Origin: a virus
IMG/VR virus record: IMGVR_UViG_3300025840_000015
Location: 32,001 to 96,000 of that record
DNA length: 64,000 nucleotides
Reading direction: 5' to 3' (one strand)
Shown here: positions 17,985-47,072 of the stretch, in pieces
Position numbering within the stretch: position 1 is the stretch's first letter
How the letters are laid out: every line of letters begins with the position of its first letter
Notes under the pieces: generated by a model
Databases searched by the model: none
What the model saw: only the letters and a program-made list of their open reading frames with translations
Told to the model about the DNA's origin: nothing
Program-made: the position numbers and the translations under genes

Positions 17985-18386
17985 TTATCTTGTTGCCTCT
18001 AGGATGAATGAGAACTGTTGTGTTGGAATTTCTTGTCCAATGACATCAAATATAATTGTAACTTCAAAAGTGTTTTCATCTGGTGATGGTTCCACTTCAA
18101 CATCGATATTTTCAACTCTTGGTTCATAATTTATGATAACTTCCTTTATTTTTTCCTGAATTTCAATGGCAGTTCCATAATCTACGAAGTCAAAGAGACT
18201 ACTCCTTACATCTGAACCAAGATCCGAGTTAAAAAAGCGCTCATTTTTCATTGTTTCAATCAAATTTCGAACCGAACGTATGATTGCATTACGATCTTTG
18301 ATAATTGGGATGTCTTTTGTTACCGGATGTGGATCAAAGGATAGACTAATATCTTTAAAAGATCTAGATACCCTAGTTACTGCCAT
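17985..18386 (-). CDS. gp25: baseplate wedge subunit gp25
   Basis: FKDISLSF, ERFFNSDLGS, NYEPRV motifs (GPW/gp25 family). Confidence 0.93.
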   Translation of the reverse strand: MAVTRVSRSFKDISLSFDPHPVTKDIPIIKDRNAIIRSVRNLIETMKNERFFNSDLGSDVRSSLFDFVDYGTAIEIQEKIKEVIINYEPRVENIDVEVEPSPDENTFEVTIIFDVIGQEIPTQQFSFILEATR

Positions 18387-18405
18387 TTTTTAGAAAGTTT
18401 TTAAA

Positions 18406-18413
18406 TATTTATC
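18406..18413 (-). promoter_or_regulatory. late promoter (GATAAATA) for the gp25-gp6-gp7 operon
   Basis: NATAAATA about 20 nt upstream of the gp25 ATG. Confidence 0.65.
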
Positions 18414-18423
18414 AACTATTTTC

Positions 18424-18765
18424 TCATCTATCCATCTGTCGATAACAGTAATTGTAAGAATCTAGGTATTTTAGCAGTTCAATTGCAATAATTCCGGGAT
18501 TTTTTTCGCCACAAGTGTAAATATCGATCGCTAAACAACCGTTTTCGGGCCAGGTGTGACAAGAAACATGACTTTCTGCAAGTGTAATGACGACTGTGCA
18601 ACCTTGTGGTATGAAACAATGTGAAAAAACGTTCAAAATGGTCATGCCAGAACGATTTATGCCGTCGATCATGACTTTTTTGAGCGAATCTATGTCATTT
18701 AATGTGTCAAATTTGACATCATATACCTCTAAGAGTATATGCTTACCCATGGAAATGTTTTTCAA
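18424..18765 (-). CDS. speD: S-adenosylmethionine decarboxylase proenzyme
   Basis: GKHILLE, F.PQG.T, LAESH autocleavage motif, HTWPE, DIYTCG. Confidence 0.92.
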   Translation of the reverse strand: MKNISMGKHILLEVYDVKFDTLNDIDSLKKVMIDGINRSGMTILNVFSHCFIPQGCTVVITLAESHVSCHTWPENGCLAIDIYTCGEKNPGIIAIELLKYLDSYNYCYRQMDR

Positions 18766-18787
18766 TTCGATGATGCTCTAAAAATTT

Positions 18788-18836
18788 TATTTATTCTTGA
18801 TTTTGCACAAAAAAATCCCCCCAAAAGGGAGGATTT
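18788..18836 (-). terminator. intrinsic terminator followed by late promoter AATAAATA upstream of speD
   Basis: - strand AAATCCTCCC-TTTT-GGGGGGATTT-TTTT (18809-18836); NATAAATA at 18788-18795. Confidence 0.7.
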
Positions 18837-18842
18837 GAAGAA

Positions 18843-18995
18843 TTATTTGCCTTGTCCCCGGTATTTTTTACGAGCTTTATTACGAGCGGTAGCGGCATAC
18901 TTGGTTCCATCACCATCTCCCTGACGAGTCTTCTTAGGAGGACCCGGAGAATATGAGGTTTTGTAGAGTCCACTGCCAACTTTTGATCTTGCCAT
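18843..18995 (-). CDS. small basic cyanophage protein (50 aa)
   Basis: hand-translated MARSKVGSGLYKTSYSPGPPKKTRQGDGDGTKYAATARNKARKKYRGQGK; the PKKTRQG...KYRGQG pattern is typical of cyanophages; below the ORF-track cutoff. Confidence 0.8.
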   Translation of the reverse strand: MARSKVGSGLYKTSYSPGPPKKTRQGDGDGTKYAATARNKARKKYRGQGK

Positions 18996-18999
18996 GATT

Positions 19000-19170
19000 T
19001 TAGTCCTCGATTAGTGTAATTTTTGTTTCAATAGAGTCGGGAGATGGACATCCTGTCTTATAAAATTGCTCTGAGAGGATGTCCATGGTGTCAAAATACT
19101 CATCTTCGGTCAGATTTGTGTATAAAACCTGACCATCACTGAGAATTGAGTATCTTTCTCTGTCTGTCAT
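19000..19170 (-). CDS. hypothetical protein (56 aa)
   Basis: MTDRERYSILSDGQVLYTNLTEDEYFDTMDILSEQFYKTGCPSPDSIETKITLIED; start overlaps the upstream stop. Confidence 0.75.
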   Translation of the reverse strand: MTDRERYSILSDGQVLYTNLTEDEYFDTMDILSEQFYKTGCPSPDSIETKITLIED

Positions 19171-19934
19171 CAGATAACGCGAGTCTTTTCGTGTCCAACG
19201 CGAATGCGAGGATCACACCAAATCTCAAAACCTGCTGAGATTGCATCCAGACAGAAGGATACGTCCTCTCCACACATGTCCTGAACGTTACCAGACTCAA
19301 ATACTTGCATCTTGGGAGCAAACCAGGGATACTTCATCTCTTCGTGCTCAAATACTCCGTTCTTAATCAGGACCCATCCAAATCCTGTGTAGTCAACAGT
19401 GAATGGTTTGCGGCGCTTGGAGATACTCTCAAGCGTTTCGTGATTCATCACACCACCATTGCCACGGAAGTCCTCTTCGTCCAGCCAATGAGCAACTGAT
19501 GTGGTGCGACCGTCCTCAGTGCAATACCAACCTGCTGCAATTTCTTTGTCCATCAGAACCAATTGATAAAGTTTTTCTGTGTTGAAAACAATATCAGAAT
19601 CAATCCAAAGTTGATAATCATAATTAAGTTTTCCATCCCACGGAAGTTGATCAGGTCCACGCAGAACGTTCGCTCCTAAACACTTGCAACGTGCAAAGTT
19701 TACCATTGACGAATAATCCTGCGAGATCTGGATAGATGCTCCGCACTTCACCAAGTCAAATGCCATCTGCACAAAGGACTTGAGGAATTGATATGAAACT
19801 CCACGTCCTGGGAGACAAAATACGATTGTCTTGCCCCTCAGCATTTCTTTTGCCTGCTCATAATCCCACGTGGTGGCGGCGGAATCTGAATTCGTGGCAG
19901 GCGTTTTTGCTTTTACTGTAAATCCTTTAGACAT
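19170..19934 (-). CDS. GT-A fold glycosyltransferase-like protein
   Basis: SMVNFARC, WIDSD (DxD), TGFGWVLI, GEDVSFC, RVGH motifs. Confidence 0.8.
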   Translation of the reverse strand: MSKGFTVKAKTPATNSDSAATTWDYEQAKEMLRGKTIVFCLPGRGVSYQFLKSFVQMAFDLVKCGASIQISQDYSSMVNFARCKCLGANVLRGPDQLPWDGKLNYDYQLWIDSDIVFNTEKLYQLVLMDKEIAAGWYCTEDGRTTSVAHWLDEEDFRGNGGVMNHETLESISKRRKPFTVDYTGFGWVLIKNGVFEHEEMKYPWFAPKMQVFESGNVQDMCGEDVSFCLDAISAGFEIWCDPRIRVGHEKTRVI

Positions 19935-19956
19935 AATAGAAAGTTGTTACTGCAAT

Positions 19957-19985
19957 ATCATACGGTATTATGTAGGTTTTGTCAA
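19957..19985 (-). promoter_or_regulatory. sigma70-type promoter
   Basis: TTGACA-17 nt-TATGAT upstream of the glycosyltransferase. Confidence 0.8.
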
Positions 19986-20158
19986 CCTCGGTCAGTCACG
20001 ATCAGACAATCTCCATCAACCTCGATGTTTAGGTTTGTGCCCTCATACCATCCCTTCTCATCGAGAATCCACTGGGGAATTGTGATAAAAAATTCACCGC
20101 TAACTGTATCCACCTCTACGGTTGTTAAATTTTCTGCGCGATTTTTTTTCATTTTCAT
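19982..20158 (-). CDS. AbrB/MazE-like swapped-hairpin DNA-binding protein (58 aa)
   Basis: GEFFITIPQWILDEKGWYEGTNLNIEVDGDCLIV pattern; likely start is the ATG at 20158, not the track's upstream start. Confidence 0.75.
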   Translation of the reverse strand: MKMKKNRAENLTTVEVDTVSGEFFITIPQWILDEKGWYEGTNLNIEVDGDCLIVTDRG

Positions 20159-20359
20159 GTTTTCTTCTCTAGTTTTTATATAGGACTTTGAGGATTTTTG
20201 TGGGCACGAAAAATTTTTTGAATCGAGAAGCGTTTTATATTTACTTCGCGATCGTAACACTTTATAGATTAGGGTAGTTAGGGGTTTTATATACGGGGGG
20301 GGCATGGATCGGATCATCGGCGCCCCGCCCGCGCGGGGCACTGTGTTTTACGAAGATTG

Positions 20360-20388
20360 GGGCGGCAGGGTATAAAGAACTGCCGCCC
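20360..20388. terminator. GC-rich hairpin downstream of the last early gene
   Basis: GGGCGGCAG / CTGCCGCCC 9-bp stem with loop GGTATAAAGAA; no clear U-tract. Confidence 0.5.
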
Positions 20389-20400
20389 GCTAAGTGTAAC

Positions 20401-20820
20401 TTAGAGTCCGAACTTTTCCCGACAGATAGGACCGATTCCTAACTCTATTGAAAGAGGGTTAGTTAGTTCACGAGCGCAACACGAGCAGGTGCCAGTATTC
20501 TGCCCGTAAAGTTTAGCGGCAGAGTAAGGATCAGCGGCGACGGATTGCACCCGTTTGATTAGATCAACCTCACCCAGATTAGTGGCGTTAGAAGTGATCC
20601 AACCCAGATAAATGTTGCTCATTGTGCCCCACTGATTAACCTCTTTATCGTGAGAAAAAACATACATTTTTCCCTGATATTTCGAGGGTTTAACTATAAA
20701 GTCTTGGAATCGCATTGTGATTCGCTTAAGACCGCGATTCTGTGCCTCTTCAATTGCATTAATGATCCCGCTAAAGTTATGGGCGGGAATGGCATTGTGG
20801 CGGATGATGGGATGGCGCAT
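20401..20820 (-). CDS. DUF6011-like zinc-binding phage protein
   Basis: C-terminal GTCSCCARELTNPLSIELGIGPIC motif. Confidence 0.75.
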   Translation of the reverse strand: MRHPIIRHNAIPAHNFSGIINAIEEAQNRGLKRITMRFQDFIVKPSKYQGKMYVFSHDKEVNQWGTMSNIYLGWITSNATNLGEVDLIKRVQSVAADPYSAAKLYGQNTGTCSCCARELTNPLSIELGIGPICREKFGL

Positions 20821-20915
20821 GATGCTTACCGGTGGTTTGGTTGGTGCGGGTTCTGCCCCGCGTGATCTAATGGTAAAGAGTAAGGGGGGGAGAATGCCCC
20901 CCCGTTAACATTAGT

Positions 20916-21215
20916 TCACACTCCCAGGAACCGGGCGATCCGCTCACGCTTGCGAAGCGGCAGGAGGCGTTTGTAGGAAACAAAGGAGCGGCGCCCAATG
21001 CTGTATTCATAGCGGCGCACCATCCCTTGTGCCGCCATCTCCTTAAGAAGGATGGAAACGGTGGTGCGTGCCTCCTTGGGCATCCCCAGCGCCCGGTTGA
21101 TCTCAGAGGGTCCAAGACCGTGGCGGGTTTTGTCCCCATCCATCGGCAGAACCGACAGGATCGCCCATTGGTAGGTTGCGCCGAATGCCTTGCGATCGGT
21201 GATGGTGGTGAACAT
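20916..21215 (-). CDS. winged-helix DNA-binding protein (putative)
   Basis: LGPSEINRALGM...TVSILLKEMAAQGMVRR followed by a beta-wing; has its own promoter (TTGGCA-17-TAATTT). Confidence 0.6.
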   Translation of the reverse strand: MFTTITDRKAFGATYQWAILSVLPMDGDKTRHGLGPSEINRALGMPKEARTTVSILLKEMAAQGMVRRYEYSIGRRSFVSYKRLLPLRKRERIARFLGV

Positions 21216-21314
21216 GGTTCAGTGGTGGTGAACGACCCCCATAAATTACCGGATCCACAGGAACCTGCCAACGTGGGGTTGTGACACCTTTAGGATTGGC
21301 ACAACCCCAGTTTG

Positions 21315-21509
21315 TATAAAGAATAAAACAAGGATTGCAAGATATAAAGAATAAGACAGGACTGAATGTAAAGAATAAACCACACCACTGACCAATAGTT
21401 TACATTCAATCCTGTGTTATTCTTTATACTCAGAGAAAATATAAAGAATAAAGAACTGATTAGGATTCATTCTTTATTCTTTATACTCAGTGTTAAGTAT
21501 AAAGATTAA
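21315..21509. repeat. AT-rich array of TATAAAGAATAA motifs in both orientations
   Basis: copies at 21315, 21343, 21367, 21440, 21498 (+) and 21417, 21474 (-); perfect 16-bp inverted repeat 21440-21455/21470-21485. Confidence 0.8.
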
Positions 21510-21512
21510 GAT

Positions 21513-21623
21513 TTATTTCTTTTTCCTCCTTTTGTTTGCTGATTGTTTCTTCGGTGTTAGAATGTTCTTAAACCTTTTATCAGGACGTGATTTACCATCC
21601 CGATGAATCCATTTGTTTGCCAT
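21513..21623 (-). CDS. small basic protein (36 aa)
   Basis: MANKWIHRDGKSRPDKRFKNILTPKKQSANKRRKKK, hand-translated. Confidence 0.55.
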   Translation of the reverse strand: MANKWIHRDGKSRPDKRFKNILTPKKQSANKRRKKK

Positions 21624-21628
21624 GTTCT

Positions 21629-21793
21629 TTATACAAACTGTGCAGGTGAACCACAAGACTGATAGAATCTAATCATTCTCTCTGCCTCTTCCTTTGTAGT
21701 GAAAGATTGTGTTCGCCATTGGCATTCATTATATGGTGATATGTATTTAATTGTGAAACCAATTGAATTAATTTGTTTTTGATTGTTGTTCAT
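21629..21793 (-). CDS. hypothetical protein (54 aa)
   Basis: MNNNQKQINSIGFTIKYISPYNECQWRTQSFTTKEEAERMIRFYQSCGSPAQFV; downstream of a TACAAT box. Confidence 0.7.
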   Translation of the reverse strand: MNNNQKQINSIGFTIKYISPYNECQWRTQSFTTKEEAERMIRFYQSCGSPAQFV

Positions 21794-21839
21794 TGTTTGG
21801 TGTTTGTTTTAATGTTGTTTTATTGTATTGTGCGCACAC

Positions 21840-21878
21840 ATCTCGTCGAGATTCTGTATGCGCACATCTCGTCGAGAT
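21840..21878. promoter_or_regulatory. pair of ATCTCGTCGAGAT palindromes (operator-like)
   Basis: 13-bp interrupted palindromes at 21840-21852 and 21866-21878. Confidence 0.65.
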
Positions 21879-21880
21879 TT

Positions 21881-22015
21881 CTATACTTCCTCAACCTCCA
21901 ATCCAAGGAGTTGATCAACAGTAACCTCCAAAAGTGCTGCCAATTCTTCATCACTCATCCATGTGATGTCGATCGGCATTTCTTCGATCTGTGCGGTGGT
22001 GGTGAAGTGATCCAT
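21881..22015 (-). CDS. small acidic protein (44 aa)
   Basis: MDHFTTTAQIEEMPIDITWMSDEELAALLEVTVDQLLGLEVEEV; has its own promoter and leader cassette. Confidence 0.65.
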   Translation of the reverse strand: MDHFTTTAQIEEMPIDITWMSDEELAALLEVTVDQLLGLEVEEV

Positions 22016-22101
22016 GGTTTCTGGTGGTGGTGCGGGTTCCTGTCCCGCTTGCTCTAATGGTAAAGGGTAATGGGGGCGTTGCCGCCCCCCTGGCAGACGG
22101 T

Positions 22102-22311
22102 TCAGCGATTGGCACGACGGCGGCGGATCTCATCGCCATAGGTGTGCGCCTCATCGTCGTAACGACCCTCAGCGATGGGGTTCCATCCCCGCATTGCCTC
22201 AGCGGCGCGGCGGGCATCCTGGGCGCTCCAGAGCAGCGCCTCATCGCTCATGCTCTTGGCACGTGCCTCCCAAGTGGCGAAATCAGCGGCGGTGGCGTAA
22301 GTGGCGATCAT
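22102..22311 (-). CDS. hypothetical early protein (69 aa)
   Basis: MIATYATAADFATWEARAK...; ATG at 22311 just downstream of TACAAT (22336-22341). Confidence 0.7.
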   Translation of the reverse strand: MIATYATAADFATWEARAKSMSDEALLWSAQDARRAAEAMRGWNPIAEGRYDDEAHTYGDEIRRRRANR

Positions 22312-22452
22312 GGTCCGGTGGTGTGAACTGCGATAATTGTAGCAGATAATTGGGGGGGGAGAGAGGAGGAGATCGATCGAATCCCCATTGTGACGATTTA
22401 TGAACAGTCCACCGATTGTCTGATTCTGGCGCCGGGCGCGTGTAGAATAAGG

Positions 22453-22511
22453 GGACAATCAGATGAGGGGTGGGGTAACCCCGTTGATGAAATGGTCGCC
22501 ACGCCCCCTGC
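22453..22511 (+). ncRNA. candidate structured small RNA, copy A
   Basis: follows TAGAAT (22443); similar in sequence and fold to 24622-24682 with compensatory changes. Confidence 0.55.
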
Positions 22512-22606
22512 GCAATTTTATTTGCGAACAATTGTGAAATGTGTTGACCCGACCGGATCCCCTATGCTAGGATTGGGGTAGAACCTTTTGTATGTTACGG
22601 ATTGTT

Positions 22607-22631
22607 AAAGAAAGGGGGCGTTGCCGCCCCG
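22607..22631 (-). terminator. intrinsic terminator
   Basis: - strand GGGGCG-GCAA-CGCCCC-CTTTCTTT just after the stop at 22639. Confidence 0.75.
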
Positions 22632-22638
22632 TTGTGGT

Positions 22639-22926
22639 TCAATGGAAAAAGTCGTAAGGCGTTTGCTCTGTCGGATCATATCCCTCCCAGAGCATTGCTA
22701 CAGTGCTAGCAATGCTGCGCTCTGCCTTCCAGCAGTCTAGGATGACATCCAGTGCCCAACCGTCATCAAGGGTGGCAGGGGGGCATTCCTGCGCCTCCAC
22801 AGCATCCCAGAACTCTCCAAAGGACTCATCCTGCCAGCAGGATTCGGAATCCAGCGCCATGCGCCGGTTGTATTCTTGGCGCTCTTGGCGCTCCATCTCT
22901 GCAAGGGTGCTGTTGTGAAAATCCAT
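22639..22926 (-). CDS. acidic early protein (95 aa)
   Basis: MDFHNSTLAEMERQ...; TTGACC-17-TATACT promoter at 22956-22984 places the start at 22926. Confidence 0.7.
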   Translation of the reverse strand: MDFHNSTLAEMERQERQEYNRRMALDSESCWQDESFGEFWDAVEAQECPPATLDDGWALDVILDCWKAERSIASTVAMLWEGYDPTEQTPYDFFH

Positions 22927-23001
22927 GGTTCCGGTGTGGTGCGGTTTGCTTTGAAAGTATAGAGGCAAAGGGAGCAGGGGTCAACCTGCCCCCCGTAGGG
23001 A

Positions 23002-23175
23002 TCAGACCGTCTGATCCTTAATGGCATCATGTACCTCTCCCAGCATGTCATACCAACGGGTTAGACCTTTTTGACCCATTTCGTGCCCTTTGGCGGACAG
23101 GAGCGCGATTCGGATCGTATCCCAATCGCCTGCGGCAAGGGTGACGGTTTTGTTTTTGGTGGTGGTGGTGCTCAT
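23002..23175 (-). CDS. hypothetical early protein (57 aa)
   Basis: MSTTTTKNKTVTLAAGDWDTIRIALLSAKGHEMGQKGLTRWYDMLGEVHDAIKDQTV; has its own promoter cassette. Confidence 0.7.
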   Translation of the reverse strand: MSTTTTKNKTVTLAAGDWDTIRIALLSAKGHEMGQKGLTRWYDMLGEVHDAIKDQTV

Positions 23176-23264
23176 CAGTCTCGGGTGTGGTGCGGGTTCC
23201 TGTCCCGCTTGAGCATATCCTACATCAGAAGGGGGGATCCGTCATCCCCCCCAGTGGACGGTGG

Positions 23265-23927
23265 TCAGACCGTCACAATCCTGTCTGCCTTTTTCTTTGC
23301 TGTTCCATGCGACGGAAAACATACAATAACGTTACGGTCGGAGTTAGCACAAATGCCGCAAGTTGCACATGTAACATTATCATGAATCTTTGCAGGGCAG
23401 ACTACACATTTGCGACCGTTGGTTGTTGTGAAGAACCGGCGCGATTCTGTGGAGGGAACAACAGCAACGGCAGGGATTCCGTGCTCTGTCATCACTTTAT
23501 CAGCAACCTCTACAGACTCACAGGATGCAGAGATTGTGAAACCTTTGCTGTTTGCTTCCTTGATAATTTCAAGGTTCTCAGTGTTGAGAACGTGGTGAGT
23601 GTAAGTGTAACCTTTGCGCCCTTTGTTTGCTGCCACCAGATCAGCAACACTGGCGCGATCGATGTTCCCATCAACATGGGGCAGATCACCGGATACGTTG
23701 TGGCGCCAGATCTGACCGCGTGCAATCCGGCGAACCTTAGAGAGGAATTCCTCCCATACAATGCCGGTTTCGGATACCTTGCGCCATGCCGCGCCCTGGA
23801 AGTGGAATTTGGCGTAGCACGCTTCCGCCATGGGGCAGGTAGCGGGGCAGGATGCCTGTTCAGTGGTGCTGGCAGGGATCCTGCCAAGTTGGGCGTTGCT
23901 GCTGGCGGGGTTGAAAGAGACGCGCAT
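23265..23927 (-). CDS. Cys-rich GP88/DUF7227-like protein (possible Fe-S, radical-SAM-related)
   Basis: SCPATCP...CYA, RHNVSGD, YTYTH, CPA...TCATCGIC...HG motifs. Confidence 0.7.
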   Translation of the reverse strand: MRVSFNPASSNAQLGRIPASTTEQASCPATCPMAEACYAKFHFQGAAWRKVSETGIVWEEFLSKVRRIARGQIWRHNVSGDLPHVDGNIDRASVADLVAANKGRKGYTYTHHVLNTENLEIIKEANSKGFTISASCESVEVADKVMTEHGIPAVAVVPSTESRRFFTTTNGRKCVVCPAKIHDNVTCATCGICANSDRNVIVCFPSHGTAKKKADRIVTV

Positions 23928-23997
23928 TGGTGTGGTTGCGACTGATCAAACAATAACAGGGGGGAGAGCGCCTGCCAACCCCCCTAGTGGACGGTTA

Positions 23998-24477
23998 TCA
24001 GATCGCCACACCATCCTGGCGAAGGCGATCCACAAGACGGGATGCCATGGCGCCACAATGGGGGCACTTTGTGGCGTATTTGATCTCTGATTTAATTTTA
24101 TGATCTTTCACCCGTGCGAACTTATAACGATAAACTTTGCTAAGTGTAAGCATTGCCTGCCTTTTTGTAATGTCGTTTTCATCAATCTCACGGTAGATTG
24201 TCACCAGATTGTGATAGGACAGGGTAGGATTACGGCGGATTTGATTCAATCGTGAAACTGCAAGTTTGGCGAATACTGCATCACCAGTAGTTTCAGTGAC
24301 TACATCAATCAGATAATCGTGAAAAGCAATAAGTTCTTCTTCTTTCTTTTGCTGCTGTTCTTTCTGTTCTTCCTCTTTCTTGATTGATTCGATCTGGGAG
24401 GTAATTTCCCGGAAAGATTCCACGAACTGCTTCTGCAGTTCGTTCAGGTTTGCGGTGAGAGTTTGGAGGTCGCTCAT
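23998..24477 (-). CDS. hypothetical early protein with N-terminal coiled coil (159 aa)
   Basis: start MSDLQTL at 24477 after the leader and promoter; C-terminal CPHC. Confidence 0.7.
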   Translation of the reverse strand: MSDLQTLTANLNELQKQFVESFREITSQIESIKKEEEQKEQQQKKEEELIAFHDYLIDVVTETTGDAVFAKLAVSRLNQIRRNPTLSYHNLVTIYREIDENDITKRQAMLTLSKVYRYKFARVKDHKIKSEIKYATKCPHCGAMASRLVDRLRQDGVAI

Positions 24478-24621
24478 TGTTCTGGGTTGGGGTGGAATCG
24501 GATCCGTTTGTCCGATGGGCACAGTATGCCCCGGCAAGACGGGGCAGATCAACCAACCCTGTGCCACTACCAGAACCGTCCACAAGGGCGTTGTAAGGTC
24601 TTAAAATGCTCTATTGTATGG

Positions 24622-24682
24622 GGACAATCGAAAGAGGGGAGGGGTATCCCTGTAGACGACAATACATCGCCACCGCCCCTGC
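24622..24682 (+). ncRNA. candidate structured small RNA, copy B
   Basis: follows TATTGT (24612); homologous to 22453-22511. Confidence 0.55.
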
Positions 24683-24707
24683 CATAAAATAATTGTTTCA
24701 ATATGTT

Positions 24708-24738
24708 AAAAAAAAGGATCCCGCACCACCAGGATCCT
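24708..24738 (-). terminator. intrinsic terminator with UGGUGGUGC loop
   Basis: - strand AGGATCC-TGGTGGTGCG-GGATCCT followed by a T run. Confidence 0.7.
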
Positions 24739-24882
24739 CTAGACTCCAATCACCAGATACGCTATACCCATATTTTATCTTAACGTTCTCGCAGAGTGAC
24801 TTTTTTTTTCTTTACAATGTGGGCAAACTCCTTCCCACACGGATAACTTTATTTTAGAGAGGCAAATCCCTTCCTCTTAAGA

Positions 24883-25077
24883 TTATTGTATCATCCAATG
24901 TGGGTCATTGTCAAGTGCAACCCAGAAAAAGTTACGATTGTTTGCACTTCTTAAGAATAGTTTGTTGTTCACGATTTGTTCAATAATGCATACAGAATCG
25001 CGTGCCATTAAATTGGCGAATCTGTTTTTTGCTTTTGATGAAATCGGTTTGACTTGAATGGTTTCCATGATGTCCAT
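24883..25077 (-). CDS. conserved cyanophage hypothetical protein
   Basis: VKPISSKAKNRFANLM...FFWV...DPHW; TATAAT box at 25090-25095. Confidence 0.75.
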   Translation of the reverse strand: MDIMETIQVKPISSKAKNRFANLMARDSVCIIEQIVNNKLFLRSANNRNFFWVALDNDPHWMIQ

Positions 25078-25107
25078 TGCAATGTGTTCATTATAATGGA
25101 TGGTGAT

Positions 25108-25162
25108 AATCTCGTCGAGATTGTGTGTGCCAATTGTTATGGTGTCACAATCTCGACGAGAT
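25108..25162. promoter_or_regulatory. pair of ATCTCGWCGAGAT palindromes flanking the GTG..CAC early-promoter dyad
   Basis: palindromes at 25108-25122 and 25150-25162; dyad GTGCCAATTGTTATGGTGTCAC at 25127-25148. Confidence 0.65.
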
Positions 25163-25171
25163 CCTTTTAGA

Positions 25172-25393
25172 TCACTGCTTGACGAGAGTCAGTTGATTCT
25201 CACGCAGTGCATTGTTGAAAAACTTACCAACGCTACCATCAGAATTGATGGTTTCCGTCAGAGTCGAAATAAACTGTTCTGCATTAACCACACCGTAGGT
25301 ATAGTCTCGACCACCAGTAAAGGTGACGGTCACTTGATCATCGACAACATCAGAGATAGATTCGATGGCGGAAGAAGTGAACTTAGGGAACAT
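25172..25393 (-). CDS. KTSC-like domain protein
   Basis: SSAIESI...VTVTFTGGRDYTY...SVGKFFN pattern. Confidence 0.7.
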   Translation of the reverse strand: MFPKFTSSAIESISDVVDDQVTVTFTGGRDYTYGVVNAEQFISTLTETINSDGSVGKFFNNALRENQLTLVKQ

Positions 25394-25464
25394 GATTTAG
25401 AATTGTGTAAAGGAACAGATGGAGTCTTTAGGGCGCTGCCGTTCCCTGTGTGATCAGTCTAGCA

Positions 25465-25611
25465 TCAGAACTCGATGGTGTCTAGTGTAGGACAAACAGT
25501 TTCGCCAGATTCACAAGTGTCACTCCCATCACAGAGAACATCAAGAATTCGAAGGATTTCTGATCCATTGGAACCTTTGCGGAGTGCGTGGATGTAAAGT
25601 TCTTTAGTCAT
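25465..25611 (-). CDS. hypothetical protein (48 aa)
   Basis: MTKELYIHALRKGSNGSEILRILD...; TAGAAT box at 25635-25640. Confidence 0.65.
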   Translation of the reverse strand: MTKELYIHALRKGSNGSEILRILDVLCDGSDTCESGETVCPTLDTIEF

Positions 25612-25681
25612 TGTTGCCTTTGGTTGACTCTGTAATTCTAAGGGCATGGCGGGGACATTGCTGCCCCCCTTGTGCCACTGC

Positions 25682-26188
25682 TCAGACTGTCATAAGGAGA
25701 GCAGGTTGTTCTGTAACGAAATCATACTCTTGGGTGTTAGTGTCACCCCAACCCAGTTTCCAACACTGCCATCCCAAACCAGGAGTAAACAGATAGCACC
25801 ATTCCTCTCCACAATCACCTGAGAGAAACTCATCGAAGTTGCTCATCCTAGGAGGAGCATCTTCACCTCGCTCACTATAATACAGTGGAGCAGGTTTTGC
25901 TTTTACTGGAGAATAGACCCACTGTTCATTATCAGTGGTGATATATTCTACAGTTCTGTTACCCTCAGAATCATAGATCTCTTTTTTGAGAGGAACAGAA
26001 TCCCAACGATGTGTGGTGTGCAACTGCCCCATATCACCACCGTTGATGAGTTCTTCTACCTGTTCTTTATACAGGTAGTTGTCAATAAGTTGGCGACCAT
26101 TGTGTTGAATGTAACCATCATAATGACAGTAAACACTAATGATTTGATCGGGTCCGAGAGCAAGACCGATGCGAGAGCGAGTTCCCAT
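25682..26188 (-). CDS. conserved phage hypothetical protein (YCHxDGY family)
   Basis: MGTRSRIG...SVYCHYDGY...EELINGGDM...EWCYLF. Confidence 0.75.
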   Translation of the reverse strand: MGTRSRIGLALGPDQIISVYCHYDGYIQHNGRQLIDNYLYKEQVEELINGGDMGQLHTTHRWDSVPLKKEIYDSEGNRTVEYITTDNEQWVYSPVKAKPAPLYYSERGEDAPPRMSNFDEFLSGDCGEEWCYLFTPGLGWQCWKLGWGDTNTQEYDFVTEQPALLMTV

Positions 26189-26254
26189 GGTGTGTTGGGT
26201 GAACTGAGATCAGTGTAGCAGGTTTGGGGGATGCTGTCATCCCCCTGTCAGGAA

Positions 26255-26431
26255 TCAGTAACTCAGATCCTCCAGATATTCTGTGAAGATTTCTGACACT
26301 TCATCCCATTGGGCGTCCGTCAGAAAACCGCACTGATCCTCCATCCAGTTGGAAACCATAGACCAGTCTGCATCCATCTCTTGGATGAACTGGGGCAGGG
26401 ACTGGAGAGCACTGATGAAATTAGAAGTCAT
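26255..26431 (-). CDS. hyperacidic small protein (58 aa)
   Basis: MTSNFISALQSLPQFIQEMDADWSMVSNWMEDQCGFLTDAQWDEVSEIFTEYLEDLSY; no Lys or Arg. Confidence 0.65.
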   Translation of the reverse strand: MTSNFISALQSLPQFIQEMDADWSMVSNWMEDQCGFLTDAQWDEVSEIFTEYLEDLSY

Positions 26432-26555
26432 GGTCGGAGTTGAGTTCCTGTTGAAAGTCTAGCATGGATTCCTGCATTTCGGGGATGTCGAAGATCTCAC
26501 CCGGAGAATCCATGATCTCATTCCAGAGATCAGTGTCGATCAGATCAAATTCCAT
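26421..26555 (-). CDS. hyperacidic small protein (44 aa)
   Basis: MEFDLIDTDLWNEIMDSPGEIFDIPEMQESMLDFQQELNSDHDF; overlaps both neighbours as in a coupled operon. Confidence 0.65.
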   Translation of the reverse strand: MEFDLIDTDLWNEIMDSPGEIFDIPEMQESMLDFQQELNSDHDF

Positions 26556-26739
26556 GAAGATTCTTAAGGTCTTGGATGGTGTGAGAGAGACCTGCCTTGC
26601 AGTATCCTACAGCATATGGGTAGGAACAGTCAAGATCACAGTCAGGTTTTGTTAGGTCTTGGGGACGTGCTGAGTATAGAACTTTTTGCATCCATTCCAG
26701 TTCCTGAATGATTTTTTCCAGTTTGGTTTTGTCGGTCAT
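26545..26739 (-). CDS. hypothetical protein
   Basis: ORF track; SYPYAVGY motif; promoter cassette at 26764-26822. Confidence 0.7.
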   Translation of the reverse strand: MTDKTKLEKIIQELEWMQKVLYSARPQDLTKPDCDLDCSYPYAVGYCKAGLSHTIQDLKNLHGI

Positions 26740-26818
26740 TGGAGTTGGGTTCCGAACAAACGAATCATCTCACGGATTCCGGAGGGATGCAACGTGCCAG
26801 TGGACAGTCTATAAAGTG

Positions 26819-26944
26819 TCACCTGCGATAGGGAGAACTCCACCATTTGCGGTATGCAGTGTAAAGAATCACTGCAGTCGAAACGATACCGACCAGACCC
26901 AGAACTGTCACAGGGTCGCCGGAGAAATCATAAGTGTCTGGCAT
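26819..26944 (-). CDS. small membrane protein (41 aa)
   Basis: MPDTYDFSGDPVTVLGLVGIVSTAVILYTAYRKWWSSPYRR; one hydrophobic helix. Confidence 0.6.
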   Translation of the reverse strand: MPDTYDFSGDPVTVLGLVGIVSTAVILYTAYRKWWSSPYRR

Positions 26945-26950
26945 AATGAA

Positions 26951-27103
26951 TCAAAAAAACGGATCAACTTCGCGAATTGTAACATCAACTTCCTCTCCAC
27001 CTTCAAGACCTAAAAGGTCTCTCCAGTCGAGTTTGTCAATGTCCAGATCATCATAACATGCAATGTCAAGTGTGACTGTGACTAAACGCTTTTGTGCTAG
27101 CAT
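26951..27103 (-). CDS. hypothetical protein (50 aa)
   Basis: MLAQKRLVTVTLDIACYDDLDIDKLDWRDLLGLEGGEEVDVTIREVDPFF. Confidence 0.65.
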   Translation of the reverse strand: MLAQKRLVTVTLDIACYDDLDIDKLDWRDLLGLEGGEEVDVTIREVDPFF

Positions 27104-27133
27104 GTGTCTTATGAGTATTGTTGATGTATTGTA

Positions 27134-27301
27134 TCATGCATAATGCTTATATGCAAGATCCTGATAGTCATTGTCACACCTATCATAATCCTCATCATTG
27201 TCGTCATAAGACTCAAGACGAGAATAATGTTCGTAGTATGAGTCTTCGTCAAGACAATGATCATTGATGGTGATGTAGTCGAGATCGTAGTCGTCGTACA
27301 T
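27134..27301 (-). CDS. Asp/Tyr-rich micro-protein (55 aa)
   Basis: MYDDYDLDYITINDHCLDEDSYYEHYSRLESYDDNDEDYDRCDNDYQDLAYKHYA; first gene after TTGTAT-17-TACAAT. Confidence 0.6.
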   Translation of the reverse strand: MYDDYDLDYITINDHCLDEDSYYEHYSRLESYDDNDEDYDRCDNDYQDLAYKHYA

Positions 27302-27303
27302 AA

Positions 27304-27389
27304 CTCGTCGAGATTCTACTGTTTACTTGTGTATTGTAGCATGATTCTCGTCGAGATACAACTAATTGCCTGATATATTCTCGTCGAGA
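27304..27389. promoter_or_regulatory. three CTCGTCGAG palindromes overlapping the leftward promoter
   Basis: 27304-27312, 27346-27356 (in the promoter spacer) and 27379-27389. Confidence 0.65.
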
Positions 27390-27476
27390 TCTCATACCAT
27401 ATATGTATAAAAACGTCAAGGAATTGTGTGGATTTGCAAATTTTTATGTCTGGATGTGAAGATTTTTGCCGGGCGC

Positions 27477-27505
27477 TTGACATTTTCGGCGTCTTGTGAT
27501 AGTGC
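27477..27505 (+). promoter_or_regulatory. putative rightward sigma70 promoter firing into the repeat array
   Basis: TTGACA-17 nt-TAGTGC with extended TG; the -10 match is weak. Confidence 0.45.
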
Positions 27506-27533
27506 GCACGCCAAACTCACAAGACCTGGGCAC

Positions 27534-27643
27534 ATTACCATAAGATATAAGAGTTATTACCATAAGATACCAGGCACATTACCATAAGATATAAGAACCA
27601 TTATCATAAGATATAAAAGTTATTATCATAAGATATAAGAGTT
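27534..27643 (+). repeat. 5 x 22-bp tandem repeat (iteron-like)
   Basis: ATTAYCATAAGATA plus 8 semi-variable nt, units starting at 27534, 27556, 27578, 27600, 27622. Confidence 0.9.
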
Positions 27644-27774
27644 CAAAACCCTTTATTTATACAATTTAACTTCATTTTAATCTCTTATATCCTGATTTCA
27701 ACAAAAAATGCCCAAAAAAGCACTGTTACAATATAAATTACATACATACAATACAGTTAAACACTATTGCCCCA

Positions 27775-28479
27775 ATGTCAGGCGCCATTTACCTCATAAT
27801 CAACAAACAAAATGGACACAAATACATAGGAAAAACCACAGATTCAATAGATTCTGCCTGGAAAGAGCATATTATCCTATCAAATCGTATGGATAGGAAT
27901 CCACTACATCTTGCTCTTCGTAAGTATAAACCTCACATGTTTTTACTTAAACCAATAGAGGATGTAGATAATAATTTAGATGAAAGATATGATTATTGGT
28001 TAGATAGATATAATCCAGAATACAATTCTAACTCCTTTACTGATGAGAATACTGAAGTTAAAACAATTGAAGTAAAGAAAGAAATAGTTTCTACCCCCAA
28101 AAAGAAGTCTAAAAGACCAGAAAAAACCAAGGGATACACAATACAAGGTATGAATCTGGCAACTGGTGAGATTAGAACATGGGAATCTGCCAGGGAGGCA
28201 GCACGTGATATTACTGGTGATGCAAAGAAGAATTCAAATATATTACGATGTGCTCGTAATGGATATAAGTATTATGATCATGTATGGAAAATTATTGAAG
28301 ACTTTAGATTCAGAAAAGTGAAGGCGGTAAATAGAAAAACATGGCAGGAATTTCACTTTGACAATATAGCAGATGTATTTAAAAAGACCGGTGTTAAAAG
28401 AGATCCACGTTTAAAGAAAGTATTAGAAAGTAATGGTAGATTAACATGGAAAGGATATATGTGGTTCTATACGGAGTAA
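27775..28479 (+). CDS. GIY-YIG domain protein with two NUMOD1-like HTH domains (probably catalytically impaired)
   Basis: GAIYLIINKQNGHKYIGKT...EYN; WESAREAAR and FDNIADV repeats. Confidence 0.85.
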   Translation: MSGAIYLIINKQNGHKYIGKTTDSIDSAWKEHIILSNRMDRNPLHLALRKYKPHMFLLKPIEDVDNNLDERYDYWLDRYNPEYNSNSFTDENTEVKTIEVKKEIVSTPKKKSKRPEKTKGYTIQGMNLATGEIRTWESAREAARDITGDAKKNSNILRCARNGYKYYDHVWKIIEDFRFRKVKAVNRKTWQEFHFDNIADVFKKTGVKRDPRLKKVLESNGRLTWKGYMWFYTE

Positions 28480-28483
28480 ACAA

Positions 28484-28654
28484 ATGAAACGCCCATTAAA
28501 CACATGTTTTGATTGCGACTATACATGGTATCCACGTGGTCATTATATAAGTAAACACTGTCCCCATTGTGGTTCTAATAACGTAGGCATACAATACATA
28601 CAAATAATCCCACTACTGTTAATAGTGGGACTACTGTTGTTTATTTTAATTTAA
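28484..28654 (+). CDS. zinc-ribbon plus transmembrane small protein (56 aa)
   Basis: MKRPLNTCFDCDYTW...CPHCGS...IIPLLLIVGLLLFILI. Confidence 0.6.
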   Translation: MKRPLNTCFDCDYTWYPRGHYISKHCPHCGSNNVGIQYIQIIPLLLIVGLLLFILI

Positions 28655-28656
28655 TT

Positions 28657-28884
28657 TCAATCCTCGAACCTTTCGTTCCATTTACCATGAAACTTTTGCA
28701 TAATACCCTCAATCATTTTGTGCCTTTTGGAAAGATATGATTCTGGGTCCATGTTATGCAGTTCGGTGATATTACCAAATGAAAAGAACATAGAATCCAG
28801 TGTATGACACATGATCTCATTCATAATCTCATGTTCTTCAACAGTAAATGTGAGCGCAATGTCATGCTCTTTCATGGTCTTCAT
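28657..28884 (-). CDS. hypothetical protein
   Basis: ORF track; tiles with neighbours. Confidence 0.65.
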   Translation of the reverse strand: MKTMKEHDIALTFTVEEHEIMNEIMCHTLDSMFFSFGNITELHNMDPESYLSKRHKMIEGIMQKFHGKWNERFED

Positions 28885-29095
28885 GTTTAGATTTCCTTGA
28901 TTTTGTTTTAACTAATTGGTCAATTTGATTCCGATAACATAATACCAGAACATGATACTTTTGATGTATGGATGGATCCGGCATTGGCGTTGTTGAAACT
29001 TCTATCGTAATATATTCAGTTCCAACATGATAAACCCATCCCTCAATGTTTTGTTGTTCCCAGACAACATAATCATTTTCTTTTGGACTATACAT
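28862..29095 (-). CDS. conserved cyanophage hypothetical protein
   Basis: YSPKENDYVVW...EGWVY...YITIE. Confidence 0.7.
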   Translation of the reverse strand: MYSPKENDYVVWEQQNIEGWVYHVGTEYITIEVSTTPMPDPSIHQKYHVLVLCYRNQIDQLVKTKSRKSKHEDHERA

Positions 29096-29255
29096 CCCTC
29101 ACTGCACGTAGATAATTAGGATTAATTCCACGTCCAACATATTCTGACAATAGTGCATCACATCGTTCCCGTGTTAATTGTCTTGCAGATGGATCAATTA
29201 GTTCCCATCCATTCGTATAAAGTTCTTCAATACGATAAAGAATTGTTTCAGTCAT
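29088..29255 (-). CDS. hypothetical protein (55 aa)
   Basis: MTETILYRIEELYTNGWELID...GINPNYLRAVRDV; fills the gap between track ORFs. Confidence 0.7.
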   Translation of the reverse strand: MTETILYRIEELYTNGWELIDPSARQLTRERCDALLSEYVGRGINPNYLRAVRDV

Positions 29256-29482
29256 GTCGTAAACTCCGATACAATACCAGACTCATGATCACCATCCAAG
29301 GGATACACTAGAGCACTCTGAATACTTGGCATGATGTTATGCACATAGGTATCATCATAAGTATCTGACGACGAGAGAATATCAAATACCTCCGAATCGT
29401 TCTCTCCAATTACGGCAACAATACCGCCATATTCAGAACTTGGAAATGGAACCCAATAATCCACCAGATAGATGTTTTTCAT
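29252..29482 (-). CDS. conserved cyanophage hypothetical protein
   Basis: YLVDYWVPFPSSEYGG motif. Confidence 0.75.
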   Translation of the reverse strand: MKNIYLVDYWVPFPSSEYGGIVAVIGENDSEVFDILSSSDTYDDTYVHNIMPSIQSALVYPLDGDHESGIVSEFTT

Positions 29483-29530
29483 TAGTTCAGTTAAATTACC
29501 ATGTCAGTTTAGTTTAGTTTGTTTGATTTG

Positions 29531-29707
29531 TCAAATAATGAATTCGGACAAATAATAATCAACGGTGATCTCCAGTTTTTCCGCCTGGCGTTCATAGAAC
29601 ATCTTCATCTCTTGACGATCATGATAATCATCAATCTCCTGTTCGGCATGTTCCATGAAGTCCTGCCATGCACGAATGAACATTTCAATTTCCTTTTGTT
29701 CCATCAT
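29531..29707 (-). CDS. hypothetical protein
   Basis: C-terminal AEKLEITVDYYLSEF; likely start MMEQKE. Confidence 0.6.
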   Translation of the reverse strand: MMEQKEIEMFIRAWQDFMEHAEQEIDDYHDRQEMKMFYERQAEKLEITVDYYLSEFII

Positions 29708-30113
29708 TAAATTGTTTGTAAAGAACAGTTTCAAGTAGTGCCGCCTCTTTTTCATGTGGTTGATCCTCATATGAAAGATCCTCCACACTGACCAGATTAT
29801 AACACAATCTACCACGTCGGTAGGTCAGTTTACCATCAATCCATTGTGATACATGCACCATCTCATGTAACAATACCCGAACATAATCCTCGGCATCCAG
29901 ATAGGTCTGAATCTCAATTAGAAAATCTCTGGGATTCTTGGATTTGGCATCAACCACATCACAATAACCCCAGACATGTTCACGCTTTAATCCACGGTGC
30001 AATACATTAATCGTCACAAAATAATCGGGATAATAAGTTTCCAAATACCATGCAATTACATTCTCACATAGTTTCTTGGAATAACCATATCCCTCATGTA
30101 AAATTAATGTCAT
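29685..30113 (-). CDS. HExxH zinc metallopeptidase-like protein
   Basis: LLHEMVHVSQ plus downstream YEDQPHEKEA. Confidence 0.75.
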   Translation of the reverse strand: MTLILHEGYGYSKKLCENVIAWYLETYYPDYFVTINVLHRGLKREHVWGYCDVVDAKSKNPRDFLIEIQTYLDAEDYVRVLLHEMVHVSQWIDGKLTYRRGRLCYNLVSVEDLSYEDQPHEKEAALLETVLYKQFNDGTKGN

Positions 30114-30204
30114 GTTAAAATGGCGAAAAACAATCGTGTCATCCAGTTCATGAAAATAAAGAAACTGGAAACAAACATAATCTTTTCAAGTCGTGATAAC
30201 ATCA

Positions 30205-30459
30205 TTAGTAATAGTGCCTTCTACAGGGAACATTTTCATACCATGTTCTTACATAACCCGATCTCCATCTGTTACCGGGAATATATTCCTCCCGGCGGAC
30301 TCTCTTGGTGCAATGAACATGACGATGATGATGACGATGACGTGATCTGTGATCACTATCCTCCTCTACAAATGGTTCCCAAAATTGTTGCCATGTGATG
30401 GCATTTGCCGGGGAACATAAAAGAATACCCGAAATTGCCAGGACTAATAGTTTTTCCAT
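30205..30459 (-). CDS. signal-peptide-bearing hypothetical protein
   Basis: MEKLLVLAISGILLCSPANA signal; His/Arg tract; paired Cys. Confidence 0.7.
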   Translation of the reverse strand: MEKLLVLAISGILLCSPANAITWQQFWEPFVEEDSDHRSRHRHHHRHVHCTKRVRREEYIPGNRWRSGYVRTWYENVPCRRHYY

Positions 30460-30761
30460 TTATCATCCAAATGATCTAAATGATTTAGTCTGGAACTGAA
30501 CAGTGAAAAACATGCCCATGCAACTCCAAGTGAAATGATCAGAAAATAGATCATGCGGCATCATCCATGTGATCATCAACCAGTGATGAATCAGGAAGAT
30601 TGTTGATCCGAGACTTCATTCGATTCATCTTGGAAATCTCCCATCCGTTCATTTCTGCATCATGCACCACACCATCCAATTGGCGGCGCTCGCTTTCCGT
30701 ATGATAATGACGATAATCGTTCATGATTCATCTCCTCAGATAACATGTTCATTATAACACA

Positions 30762-31253
30762 TCATTTCTGATAAAGGTATCCTCCAGACCAATCGGCATT
30801 TTCAAACAGATACTCACGATCTTCGATCAATCGCAAATCATAACGAACTCCCTTGGCAGGAGACTTCCATGATGCAGACTTATAAACTTCACCGGTCTTA
30901 CGATCCACAAAACAATGCACGGAACGTTGACCACCACCATCAATGAATACAATCTTGTGATATTTCTTACCGCTCACAATCTCATAATCAATGTCACATC
31001 CACCATTCTTCAGTTCAACAATCTTATTAAGATGATACTGATACGTGGCAGAATTAGGATCCTGCTCCGGTGCGGCAGCATTTAGAATAGAACGCTCGTG
31101 ACCACGAATTGCATAATCACGATAGTTATCCTTCAGGGCATCAATCAGCATCAGAGACCACTTACGAACATTCAGTTCAATGGTGTTCCTGGCATCCTGC
31201 TGGGATGCATATTCTGCGAAGGTTGGATTGGGAAGTGAGATCATGGTGATCAC
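30762..31253 (-). CDS. conserved T4-like phage hypothetical protein
   Basis: KKYHKI...SVHCFVDRKTGEVYKSASWKSPAKGVRY motif. Confidence 0.8.
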   Translation of the reverse strand: MITMISLPNPTFAEYASQQDARNTIELNVRKWSLMLIDALKDNYRDYAIRGHERSILNAAAPEQDPNSATYQYHLNKIVELKNGGCDIDYEIVSGKKYHKIVFIDGGGQRSVHCFVDRKTGEVYKSASWKSPAKGVRYDLRLIEDREYLFENADWSGGYLYQK

Positions 31254-31269
31254 CCTTGATTACCTCCAT

Positions 31270-31329
31270 ATTATAAGGACTCACAAGGCGCTTCGGCAAT
31301 GCCGTTGTGACAGTTCTTCATGTGGACAC
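31270..31329 (-). promoter_or_regulatory. early promoter with GTG..CAC dyad
   Basis: TATAAT at 31270-31275; dyad GTGACAGTTCTTCATGTGGACAC at 31307-31329, 31 bp upstream. Confidence 0.7.
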
Positions 31330-31330
31330 T

Positions 31331-31364
31331 AAAAAGCGCCCTGAAGAGTCTCAGAGCGCTTTTT
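31331..31364. terminator. bidirectional intrinsic terminator
   Basis: AAAAAGCGC...GCGCTTTTT. Confidence 0.7.
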
Positions 31365-31373
31365 GTGGAAGGA

Positions 31374-31520
31374 TTAGCGAGCATATCTACATTTTGGATT
31401 CTCCATCTGTTCGGCACAAATAGAATCATATGCATCCAACATCTTCATATCTCTATTTGAGAGAAATGAATTATACATCAAAATACCAATTACGGCAAGA
31501 AAAATGTAAGAGGTTTTCAT
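31374..31520 (-). CDS. small membrane-anchored protein (48 aa)
   Basis: MKTSYIFLAVIGILMYNSFLSNRDMKMLDAYD... Confidence 0.6.
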   Translation of the reverse strand: MKTSYIFLAVIGILMYNSFLSNRDMKMLDAYDSICAEQMENPKCRYAR

Positions 31521-31522
31521 TT

Positions 31523-31681
31523 TCAATCAATGTCGGTGTAAAGAAACTTGTTATCTGGAAAAATACCCATTTCTTCGCATCGCACTTCATAGGCAATTCG
31601 CTTTAGCAACTGCAAATCATAATTTTCAATGCTTTTAATCATGGTGCGACGAATCTGGGCAGTTTGAGTGTCGTCTTTCAT
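31523..31681 (-). CDS. hypothetical protein (52 aa)
   Basis: MKDDTQTAQIRRTMIKSIENYDLQLLKRIAYEVRCEEMGIFPD... Confidence 0.65.
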   Translation of the reverse strand: MKDDTQTAQIRRTMIKSIENYDLQLLKRIAYEVRCEEMGIFPDNKFLYTDID

Positions 31682-31684
31682 GGT

Positions 31685-46987: not shown

Positions 46988-46994
46988 ATTTGTT

Positions 46995-47069: not shown

Positions 47070-47072
47070 ATT

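Follow-up and report, generated by a model that had tools for sequence, protein, structure and literature searches.

A candidate small RNA family with two paralogous classes in freshwater T4-like cyanophages

Introduction

Very few non-coding RNAs are known from cyanophages. This report concerns an element that occurs twice in a 64,000-nucleotide stretch of a viral genome (positions 32,001 to 96,000 of IMG/VR record IMGVR_UViG_3300025840_000015), here called the window, whose numbering is used throughout. The window comes from a T4-like myovirus and encodes baseplate wedge and hub proteins. A reading made from the sequence alone had proposed that two copies of a structured small RNA lie on its + strand, and both sequences were found where they had been placed: copy A, with its conserved RNA core at 22451-22514 (+), and copy B, with its core at 24620-24685 (+). 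Copy A scores 60.1 bits with nhmmer and 74 bits (E 3e-13) with our covariance model R1; the corresponding values for copy B are 70.3 bits and 89.5 bits (E 1e-16). A pattern of 20 specified bases from the shared 5' half has exactly two matches in the window, where chance would give 0.01, and in the whole 116-kb phage record it again finds copies A and B and nothing else. The two copies are diverged paralogues of different classes, A being class I with a short variable loop and B class II with a long one, and they belong to a family that we read, as weighed below, as small non-coding RNAs.

The locus and its features

The copies lie in a GC-rich island (window 18000-32000) of promoter-hairpin-gene cassettes, where GC content is 40-55% and peaks at 55% at 22-24 kb, compared with about 30% in the backbone. 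All of the surrounding genes are on the - strand. Copy A is found between a 69-aa open reading frame (ORF) at 22102-22311 and a 95-aa ORF at 22639-22926, beyond which lie a 57-aa ORF (23002-23175), a DUF7227 gene (23265-23927; Pfam E 8e-73) and a 159-aa ORF (23998-24477). Copy B is placed between the last of these and the gene for a phrog_1653 protein (24883-25077). The neighbouring proteins g64, g159 and g69 contain neither a Pfam domain nor any obvious feature of RNA-binding proteins. Elsewhere in the window a single 4,266-aa ORF (3232-16032, -) stands between two baseplate-wedge genes, and there are further giant ORFs of 1,903 aa (40679-46390) and 2,048 aa (48418-54564).

Each copy is preceded on the + strand by a 24-bp dyad operator, identified by pattern match at 22389-22412 for copy A, upstream of its + strand promoter, and at 24560-24583 for copy B. 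The -10 hexamers reported by the sequence-only reading, TAGAAT (22443-22448) and TATTGT (24612-24617), are both present, 4 nt ahead of copies A and B and 30 and 28 nt past the dyads, respectively. The predicted transcript starts are the A at 22455 and the A at 24624. Within copy A, a GA dinucleotide (22465-66) is followed by a hairpin, P1, in which 22467-22471 pairs with 22478-22482 around a loop at 22472-22477, then by a 3-nt bulge (22483-85) and a second GA (22486-87). Copy B has the same arrangement: GA at 24634-35, P1 formed by 24636-24640 and 24647-24651 with its loop at 24641-24646, the bulge at 24652-54 and the second GA at 24655-56. In both copies P1 rests on covariation.

Downstream of copy A, 100 nt past the core, lies a GC hairpin (22615-22630) that is terminator-like on both strands. 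This hairpin terminates the convergent - strand gene and may also form the 3' end of RNA A. The corresponding hairpin of copy B (24713-24740) begins 29 nt past the core. It is a - strand terminator with a T8 tract on that strand, displays an early-leader motif in its + strand loop, and may be a 3' module of RNA B.

The element was not recognised as a known RNA family, in agreement with the sequence-only reading: Rfam gave no match to it at the gathering score, nor at E<=10 in 22300-24800. Across the whole window, Rfam 15 at the gathering score found only 4 tRNAs, all elsewhere, and the E<=10 scan of 22300-24800 returned one chance snoRNA match at 24321-24346 (-), outside the element. The four tRNA genes form a cluster at 46766-47147 (-). 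No ORF is conserved: the ATG of copy A is missing in copy B, family members differ by indels of 1-3 nt, and a small-peptide reading was rejected as neither a start codon nor a frame is conserved across the family.

Distribution and classification

The family was gathered by three exact-pattern scans of IMG/VR together with a hidden Markov model, seeded with the first 15 distinct sequences, over all fetched loci. It comprises at least 126 matches and at least 88 distinct element sequences in IMG/VR loci. The two copies had initially been taken for an isolated local pair; both are real, and they represent a family that has at least 88 variants and falls into two paralogous classes, usually both present in a genome. 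What separates the classes is the variable loop, short and ending in GGUCG in one, long and ending in ACAUCG in the other. In the contigs that carry two copies (at least 14), there is one copy of each class, the orientation and order are constant, and the copies are 1-5 kb apart.

BLAST searches of deposited phage genomes located the element in GenBank in the Synechococcus phages S-SRM01, a cultured isolate, and DSL-LC03, both freshwater Kyanoviridae. DSL-LC03 was assembled from a Dishui Lake metagenome (PMC10611076). The copies of S-SRM01 lie at 88578-88649 and 90130-90209 of MW015081, on the - strand of that record, and the GenBank records of both phages carry no annotation at the element site. 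Covariance model R1 finds two copies in the genome of the window, two in S-SRM01, one in DSL-LC03, and one or two in each of two long IMG/VR contigs.

When the strict 20-base pattern was searched in one genome per species of 185,579 prokaryote species, there was a single match, on a 4.9-kb contig of a metagenome-assembled genome (L218, JAAXIF010000029.1) binned as Sphingobacteriales. This contig carries a complete unit of dyad, -10 hexamer and element, and is probably misbinned phage DNA. The family is therefore phage-specific, its one cellular match among the 185,579 genomes being on this phage-like contig. An RNA anti-CRISPR or solitary CRISPR repeat would mimic the repeats of arrays in host genomes; the same strict search matched no CRISPR arrays, diverged repeats falling outside it.

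Secondary structure

Folds were tested on an alignment (A3) of 85 distinct sequences, to which the counts out of 85 refer. From this alignment RNAalifold gives a single hairpin, P1, of 5 bp with a loop of RRGGUA, in which the first G-run and the base after it pair with CCCY and the base before its CCC. P1 is 99.8% paired, and compensatory changes are found at four of its five pairs, in 42 cells. At the inner three pairs G-C is replaced by U-A, C-G or A-U, and the closing pair is seen as C-G, A-U, U-A, G-C and U.G. No shuffle equalled these values (0/500), and the signal was lost when the partner strand was slid by 1-3 columns. The T...A versus A...T difference between copies A and B around GGGGTA, previously taken for loop variation, is a compensatory base pair of P1.

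The sequence-only reading had drawn a different fold, a three-way junction with an AGGGG/CCCCU closing stem, and had proposed covariation among homologues as a check. Covariation is present, in P1; the three-way junction lacks it. On the 85 homologues the junction does no better than column shuffles (472-499 of 500 match it), with one compensatory cell overall. Its closing stem is 68% paired, and three of the five pairs are broken in 25-42 of the 85 sequences. The second G-run, which was to pair with CCCY, varies (GAGG, AGGG, AAGG) without any response in CCCY, and in 20 of 78 sequences the YGA/UCG stem cannot form its third pair. In members with a C-run near the 3' end, the minimum-energy folds of single sequences do join this run to the first G-run, as the junction would require. 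The 3' segment is variable, however, with a run of at least three C in 38/85, a run of at least three G in 19/85 and neither in 28/85, and a small RNA of that shape is already contradicted by the comparative data and hardly tenable.

No further helix could be established. A second helix, GAYGA/UCGYC, is 78% paired with zero compensatory (double) changes and is unsupported; alternative registers of a second hairpin, a pseudoknot of loop GGU with GCC, and pairing of the 5' leader with UCGC each suit only some subtypes. An all-against-all scan of the columns of the 85 sequences revealed no second set of pairs, and the column pairs with high mutual information, apart from the P1 closing pair, are subtype markers and poorly paired. 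Folded singly, on either strand, copies A and B gain no stability over shuffled sequences (z -0.2 and -1.0). In one family member (L071:6909-6973) the variable region after P1, which otherwise lacks structure, contains a perfect inverted repeat of 7 bp, CTGTTGA / TCAACAG.

P1 has conserved flanks. An invariant GA lies directly 5' of P1, and after P1 come exactly 3 nt and then a second invariant GA (85/85), so that alignment columns G16, A17, G37 and A38 do not vary in any of the 85 sequences. At its base P1 pairs a G with Y in 85/85, and the first nucleotide of the 3-nt bulge is G in 81/85. The GA, the G, the length of the bulge and the second GA are all kept in 85/85, and invariant and free positions are interleaved. 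GA, three nucleotides and GA on a canonical stem form the sequence signature of a kink-turn. A stem followed by a 3-nt bulge is found here in every sequence (P1 plus 3 nt, 85/85), as is, at the sequence level, the tandem G.A/A.G (85/85). Beyond these G.A pairs, position 3b.3n varies, 73/85 sequences have G.A at 4b.4n, and 5b.5n is A.R. To judge from this sequence signature, there is a roughly even chance that P1 serves as the canonical stem of a kink-turn. The hammerhead was rejected as the equivalents of U4, A13 and A14 are variable and there is no Rfam hammerhead match. Likewise, resemblances to box C/D RNAs and to the fluoride and ZTP riboswitches were set aside as there is no Rfam match and core positions vary.

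Strand assignment and promoter

At the base of P1, 77 sequences have G.U and 8 have G-C; the closing pair is U.G in three. On the - strand these pairs would be C.A mismatches, which indicates a + strand transcript. The + strand assignment of the sequence-only reading is thus borne out by the G.U pairs, and the fixed distance of the -10 hexamer and the conserved synteny agree with it.

Among homologues, the sequence TAnnnT (consensus TATAnT) occurs at a fixed -22 to -17 from the invariant GAG in 65/82, and the A of ACAA is conserved 7 nt downstream of the hexamer. This A is the likely transcript start, as judged by its position. No conserved -35 element was seen in the homologues aligned on the invariant GAG. 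The dyad is at the expected position in 69-76 of the 82 homologues, with both half-sites in 69, and the same 24-bp dyad is present on the - strand ahead of neighbouring genes. The element consequently has a conserved promoter of its own, of a dyad class shared with its neighbours, as first proposed; the label 'early' for that class was an assumption of the sequence-only reading.

Operator dyads occur in the window at 22389-22412, 23254-23277, 23987-24010, 24560-24583 and 26800-26823. The operator consists of two interchangeable half-sites, of TGTGCCA and TGTGGAC types, that are palindromic around a conserved TTC..GAA centre. About 29 nt separate its 3' end from the -10 hexamer, which places the operator roughly at -65 to -42. 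A separate sigma-70-like promoter match (TTGACC, 18 nt, TAGGAT with TG) is found at 22544-22573 (+), inside the extra insert that follows the core of copy A.

The strand evidence also bears on whether the element acts as DNA, for instance as a mobile promoter cassette or recombination site in the manner of the promoter early stem-loop (PeSL) cassettes of T4-type phages, or as a site for a DNA-binding protein. The setting is suggestive, as the copies are direct repeats flanking a gene cassette in a hyperplastic island of promoter-hairpin-gene cassettes that is richer in GC than its surroundings (40-55% vs about 30%). However, alternation of G.U with G-C and strand-asymmetric pairing would be unexpected for duplex DNA, and the copies are diverged paralogues rather than recombining, near-identical repeats. 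We regard a DNA-level role as very improbable.

Synteny and conservation

Homologues of the flanking genes lie beside the element in many contigs, always on the opposite strand. Orientation was taken from the synteny of homologous genes and from GenBank annotation, which replaced strand calls based on ORFs as these were too noisy. The window, the homologous loci and the annotation of S-SRM01 and DSL-LC03 all agree that the element is antisense to every flanking gene, as the sequence-only reading had it. Elements of class II, the type of copy B, are positioned between homologues of the 159-aa ORF and of phrog_1653, and those of class I face DUF7227 or small inserted ORFs. Identity of the RNA core reaches about 90% or more at loci whose flanking proteins share only 32-66%, so the element is under stronger constraint than its neighbours.

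No + strand genes follow the element for at least 3.5 kb in the annotation of S-SRM01 and DSL-LC03, and the same holds in the window. This matters for the possibility that the element works in cis on an antisense transcript, either by read-through of the nut/put type that silences the convergent early genes, or as an insulator of convergent transcription between cassettes. Such a role would suit an element that is present twice in a genome and whose small hairpin, with its purine-rich loop, and linear blocks come right after an operator-controlled promoter; the element always faces a convergent gene (phrog_1653 or DUF7227), and its + strand terminator tails are weak. The case is weakened because there are no + strand genes downstream to be reached, and an insulator would have no need of about 60 nt of conserved RNA sequence. 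A cis-acting element is, on this evidence, an unlikely explanation.

The region could also be a replication origin whose transcript serves as a primer or forms an R-loop, as at oriF and oriG of T4, with a G-rich RNA hybridised beside an AT-rich stretch that unwinds. T4 does use origins composed of a promoter and an unwinding element, and here a promoter, two G-runs and an A/T-rich linker of about 29 nt follow one another in several copies per genome. Compensation in P1 keeps the RNA hairpin and not its G-richness, however, as when G-C becomes U-A or C-G, and the AT-rich stretch is short and doubles as the U-tract of the convergent terminator. The GC-rich island taken together has a positive GC skew, slight over about 20-28 kb, despite the - strand genes, and the cumulative skew has no clear turning point at copy A or B. 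An origin transcript is improbable.

The downstream hairpin

Across the family, a GC hairpin begins at a median of 29 nt past the core, and in 48 of 62 cases an A-run comes before it. The constant spacing suggests that the hairpin is part of the RNA unit. In some phages it is a bidirectional terminator. If the hairpin were included, the predicted RNA would be about 110-120 nt long; that of copy A would be about 185 nt because of an extra insert of about 70 nt between core and terminator, which is found only in copy A and its close relative L019.

In class II the loop of this hairpin is constant, in the form GCACCACC, and its stem is fully changed between phages (e.g. L005, L016, L050 and L017). 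Since the stem changes and the hairpin is kept, the class II downstream hairpin covaries. The 8-mer CGCACCAC has five - strand sites in the island, three of which are just upstream of early-gene starts (22015, 22926 and 23175), and occurs once on the + strand, in the loop of hairpin 24713-24740. Either the - strand terminator loop is antisense to the CGCACCAC leaders, or RNA B carries a mimic of the leader.

The sharing of CGCACCAC between - strand early leaders and the 3' hairpin loop of RNA B is among the points that suggest a base-pairing small RNA, in which a single-stranded block (UCGCCAC or the 5' leader) would pair with host or phage mRNAs and the hairpin would just stabilise the molecule. 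The layout is typical of such RNAs, with a promoter, a conserved 5' domain, an A/U-rich linker and a terminator-like hairpin about 29 nt away. Against this, the conserved blocks are at most 7 nt long and interleaved with free positions at fixed spacing, the 5' leader differs among subtypes, and no target was found, the host genome being outside the search. We consider base pairing improbable as its function. Free and invariant positions interleaved at fixed spacing, a clamped hairpin and two ancient paralogues are more readily explained by a folded RNA bound to protein than by a linear antisense seed.

Interpretation

The account that we favour, with confidence evenly balanced between belief and doubt, is that copies A and B represent the two paralogues, class I and class II respectively, of a phage-specific family of small non-coding RNAs, probably protein-binding, in freshwater T4-like cyanophages (Kyanoviridae). 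Each RNA gene would be driven by its own promoter, composed of a -10 hexamer with a palindromic operator about 29 nt upstream, which would be of the same class as the promoters of the surrounding - strand genes and point in the opposite direction. The transcript would begin at the conserved A in ACAA and open with a conserved 5' domain of about 60 nt, built on the 5-bp P1 with its RRGGUA loop and clamped in kink-turn-like fashion by the invariant GA dinucleotides. Downstream of P1 would come the conserved single-stranded blocks GAYG, UCG-NN-AC and CNGCC, and then an A-rich linker and the GC hairpin held in common with the convergent gene. The 5' domain may form a protein-binding platform, with the RNA acting in trans as a ribonucleoprotein, a decoy or a sponge. 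The idea of the sequence-only reading that the RNA is a decoy is compatible with protein binding.

Several observations weigh against this account. Only the five base pairs of P1 are proven. P1 is in the minimum-energy fold of only 23/85 single sequences, and the remainder prefer competing pairings (mean 3.8 kcal/mol), which often join one strand of P1 to the variable 3' segment. The putative non-canonical stem of the kink-turn has neither Watson-Crick support nor covariation, and no L7Ae-family protein (PF01248) was found in 5 phage genomes in a search whose positive controls scored; kink-turns can also fold without a protein of the L7Ae/L30e family. A good + strand T-rich or U-run tail follows the downstream hairpin in only 17-26 of 62 cases, which makes the hairpin first of all a terminator of the convergent gene and leaves the 3' end uncertain. 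No partner or target was identified, and no transcriptome was found for S-SRM01, DSL-LC03 or their relatives.

The competing folds deserve a comment of their own. In 57/85 members the 3' C-run or G-run is complementary to one strand of P1; a competing conformation through the 3' segment is possible, but not conserved, and the segment might act as a conformational switch. In a bolder form of the favoured account, which we hold to be unlikely, the two RNAs would be the RNA subunits of a new phage ribonucleoprotein assembled on the kink-turn-like hairpin, expressed from operator-controlled promoters along with the genes of the island and capturing a factor of the phage or of the host (in translation, RNA decay or defence).

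None of the protein genes around the element is as well conserved as this family. This conservation, the two ancient classes and an operator common to an island of unknown genes make it a strong candidate for a regulator in the first phase of infection by freshwater Synechococcus phages. As S-SRM01, which carries the element, and its host Synechococcus sp. KCZYC6 are in culture, the prediction is directly testable. The family would be an addition to Rfam and provides a clean covariance model for the annotation of viral metagenomes.

Comparison with known systems

Kink-turns such as Kt-7 and the box C/D k-turn resemble the element in having a stem that ends in G-Y, with 3 nt and GA on one strand and GA on the other, and many family members read AUGAUGA, like a box C. 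Unlike box C/D RNAs, the element has neither a box D CUGA nor a guide region; unlike kink-turns in general, its non-canonical stem has no Watson-Crick pairs past the two G.A pairs, and the L7Ae-family gene is absent from the 5 phage genomes searched.

The nutL and nutR sites of lambda (boxA and boxB) and putL and putR of HK022 are likewise paired copies of a 5-bp hairpin with a purine-rich loop, accompanied by linear blocks, after a regulated phage promoter. In contrast to these, the element has no same-strand downstream genes to antiterminate into, its loop is 6 nt long (RRGGUA), and it shows no boxA-like sequence, sequence similarity or Rfam match.

The PeSL cassettes in hyperplastic regions of T4-type phages are repeated promoter and hairpin units between small ORFs; they run in the direction of the genes, and no conserved domain is transcribed from them. 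The element is also a repeated promoter and hairpin unit in a variable island, but it runs opposite to the genes, and selection acts on about 60 nt of its predicted transcript. Origins oriF and oriG of T4 comprise a promoter, an AT-rich stretch and a non-coding transcript, and need no conserved RNA hairpin. A promoter and an AT-rich stretch are found in the element as well, together with a conserved RNA hairpin.

The closest parallel in kind is CfrI of cyanophage S-PM2, an antisense RNA of about 225 nt tied to psbA and a homing-endonuclease gene (PMC12197685). Like the element, for which transcription is predicted, it is non-coding, encoded by a T4-like cyanophage and directed against neighbouring genes (PMC12197685); other phage small RNAs, such as OOP and sar, belong in the same comparison. 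The element differs from CfrI in being tied to a cassette of unknown genes, in having two paralogues, and in that its conserved part lies outside any coding sequence. The non-coding RNAs listed for cyanophages are CfrI, PhotoRC-II, wcaG, manA, glnA and abiF (PMC9964418, PMC12197685). None of these is a free-standing RNA that has a promoter to itself and is kept throughout a phage lineage. Our literature searches turned up no published description of the element, and the family is new and undescribed, of a kind that is well known, the phage-encoded small RNA.

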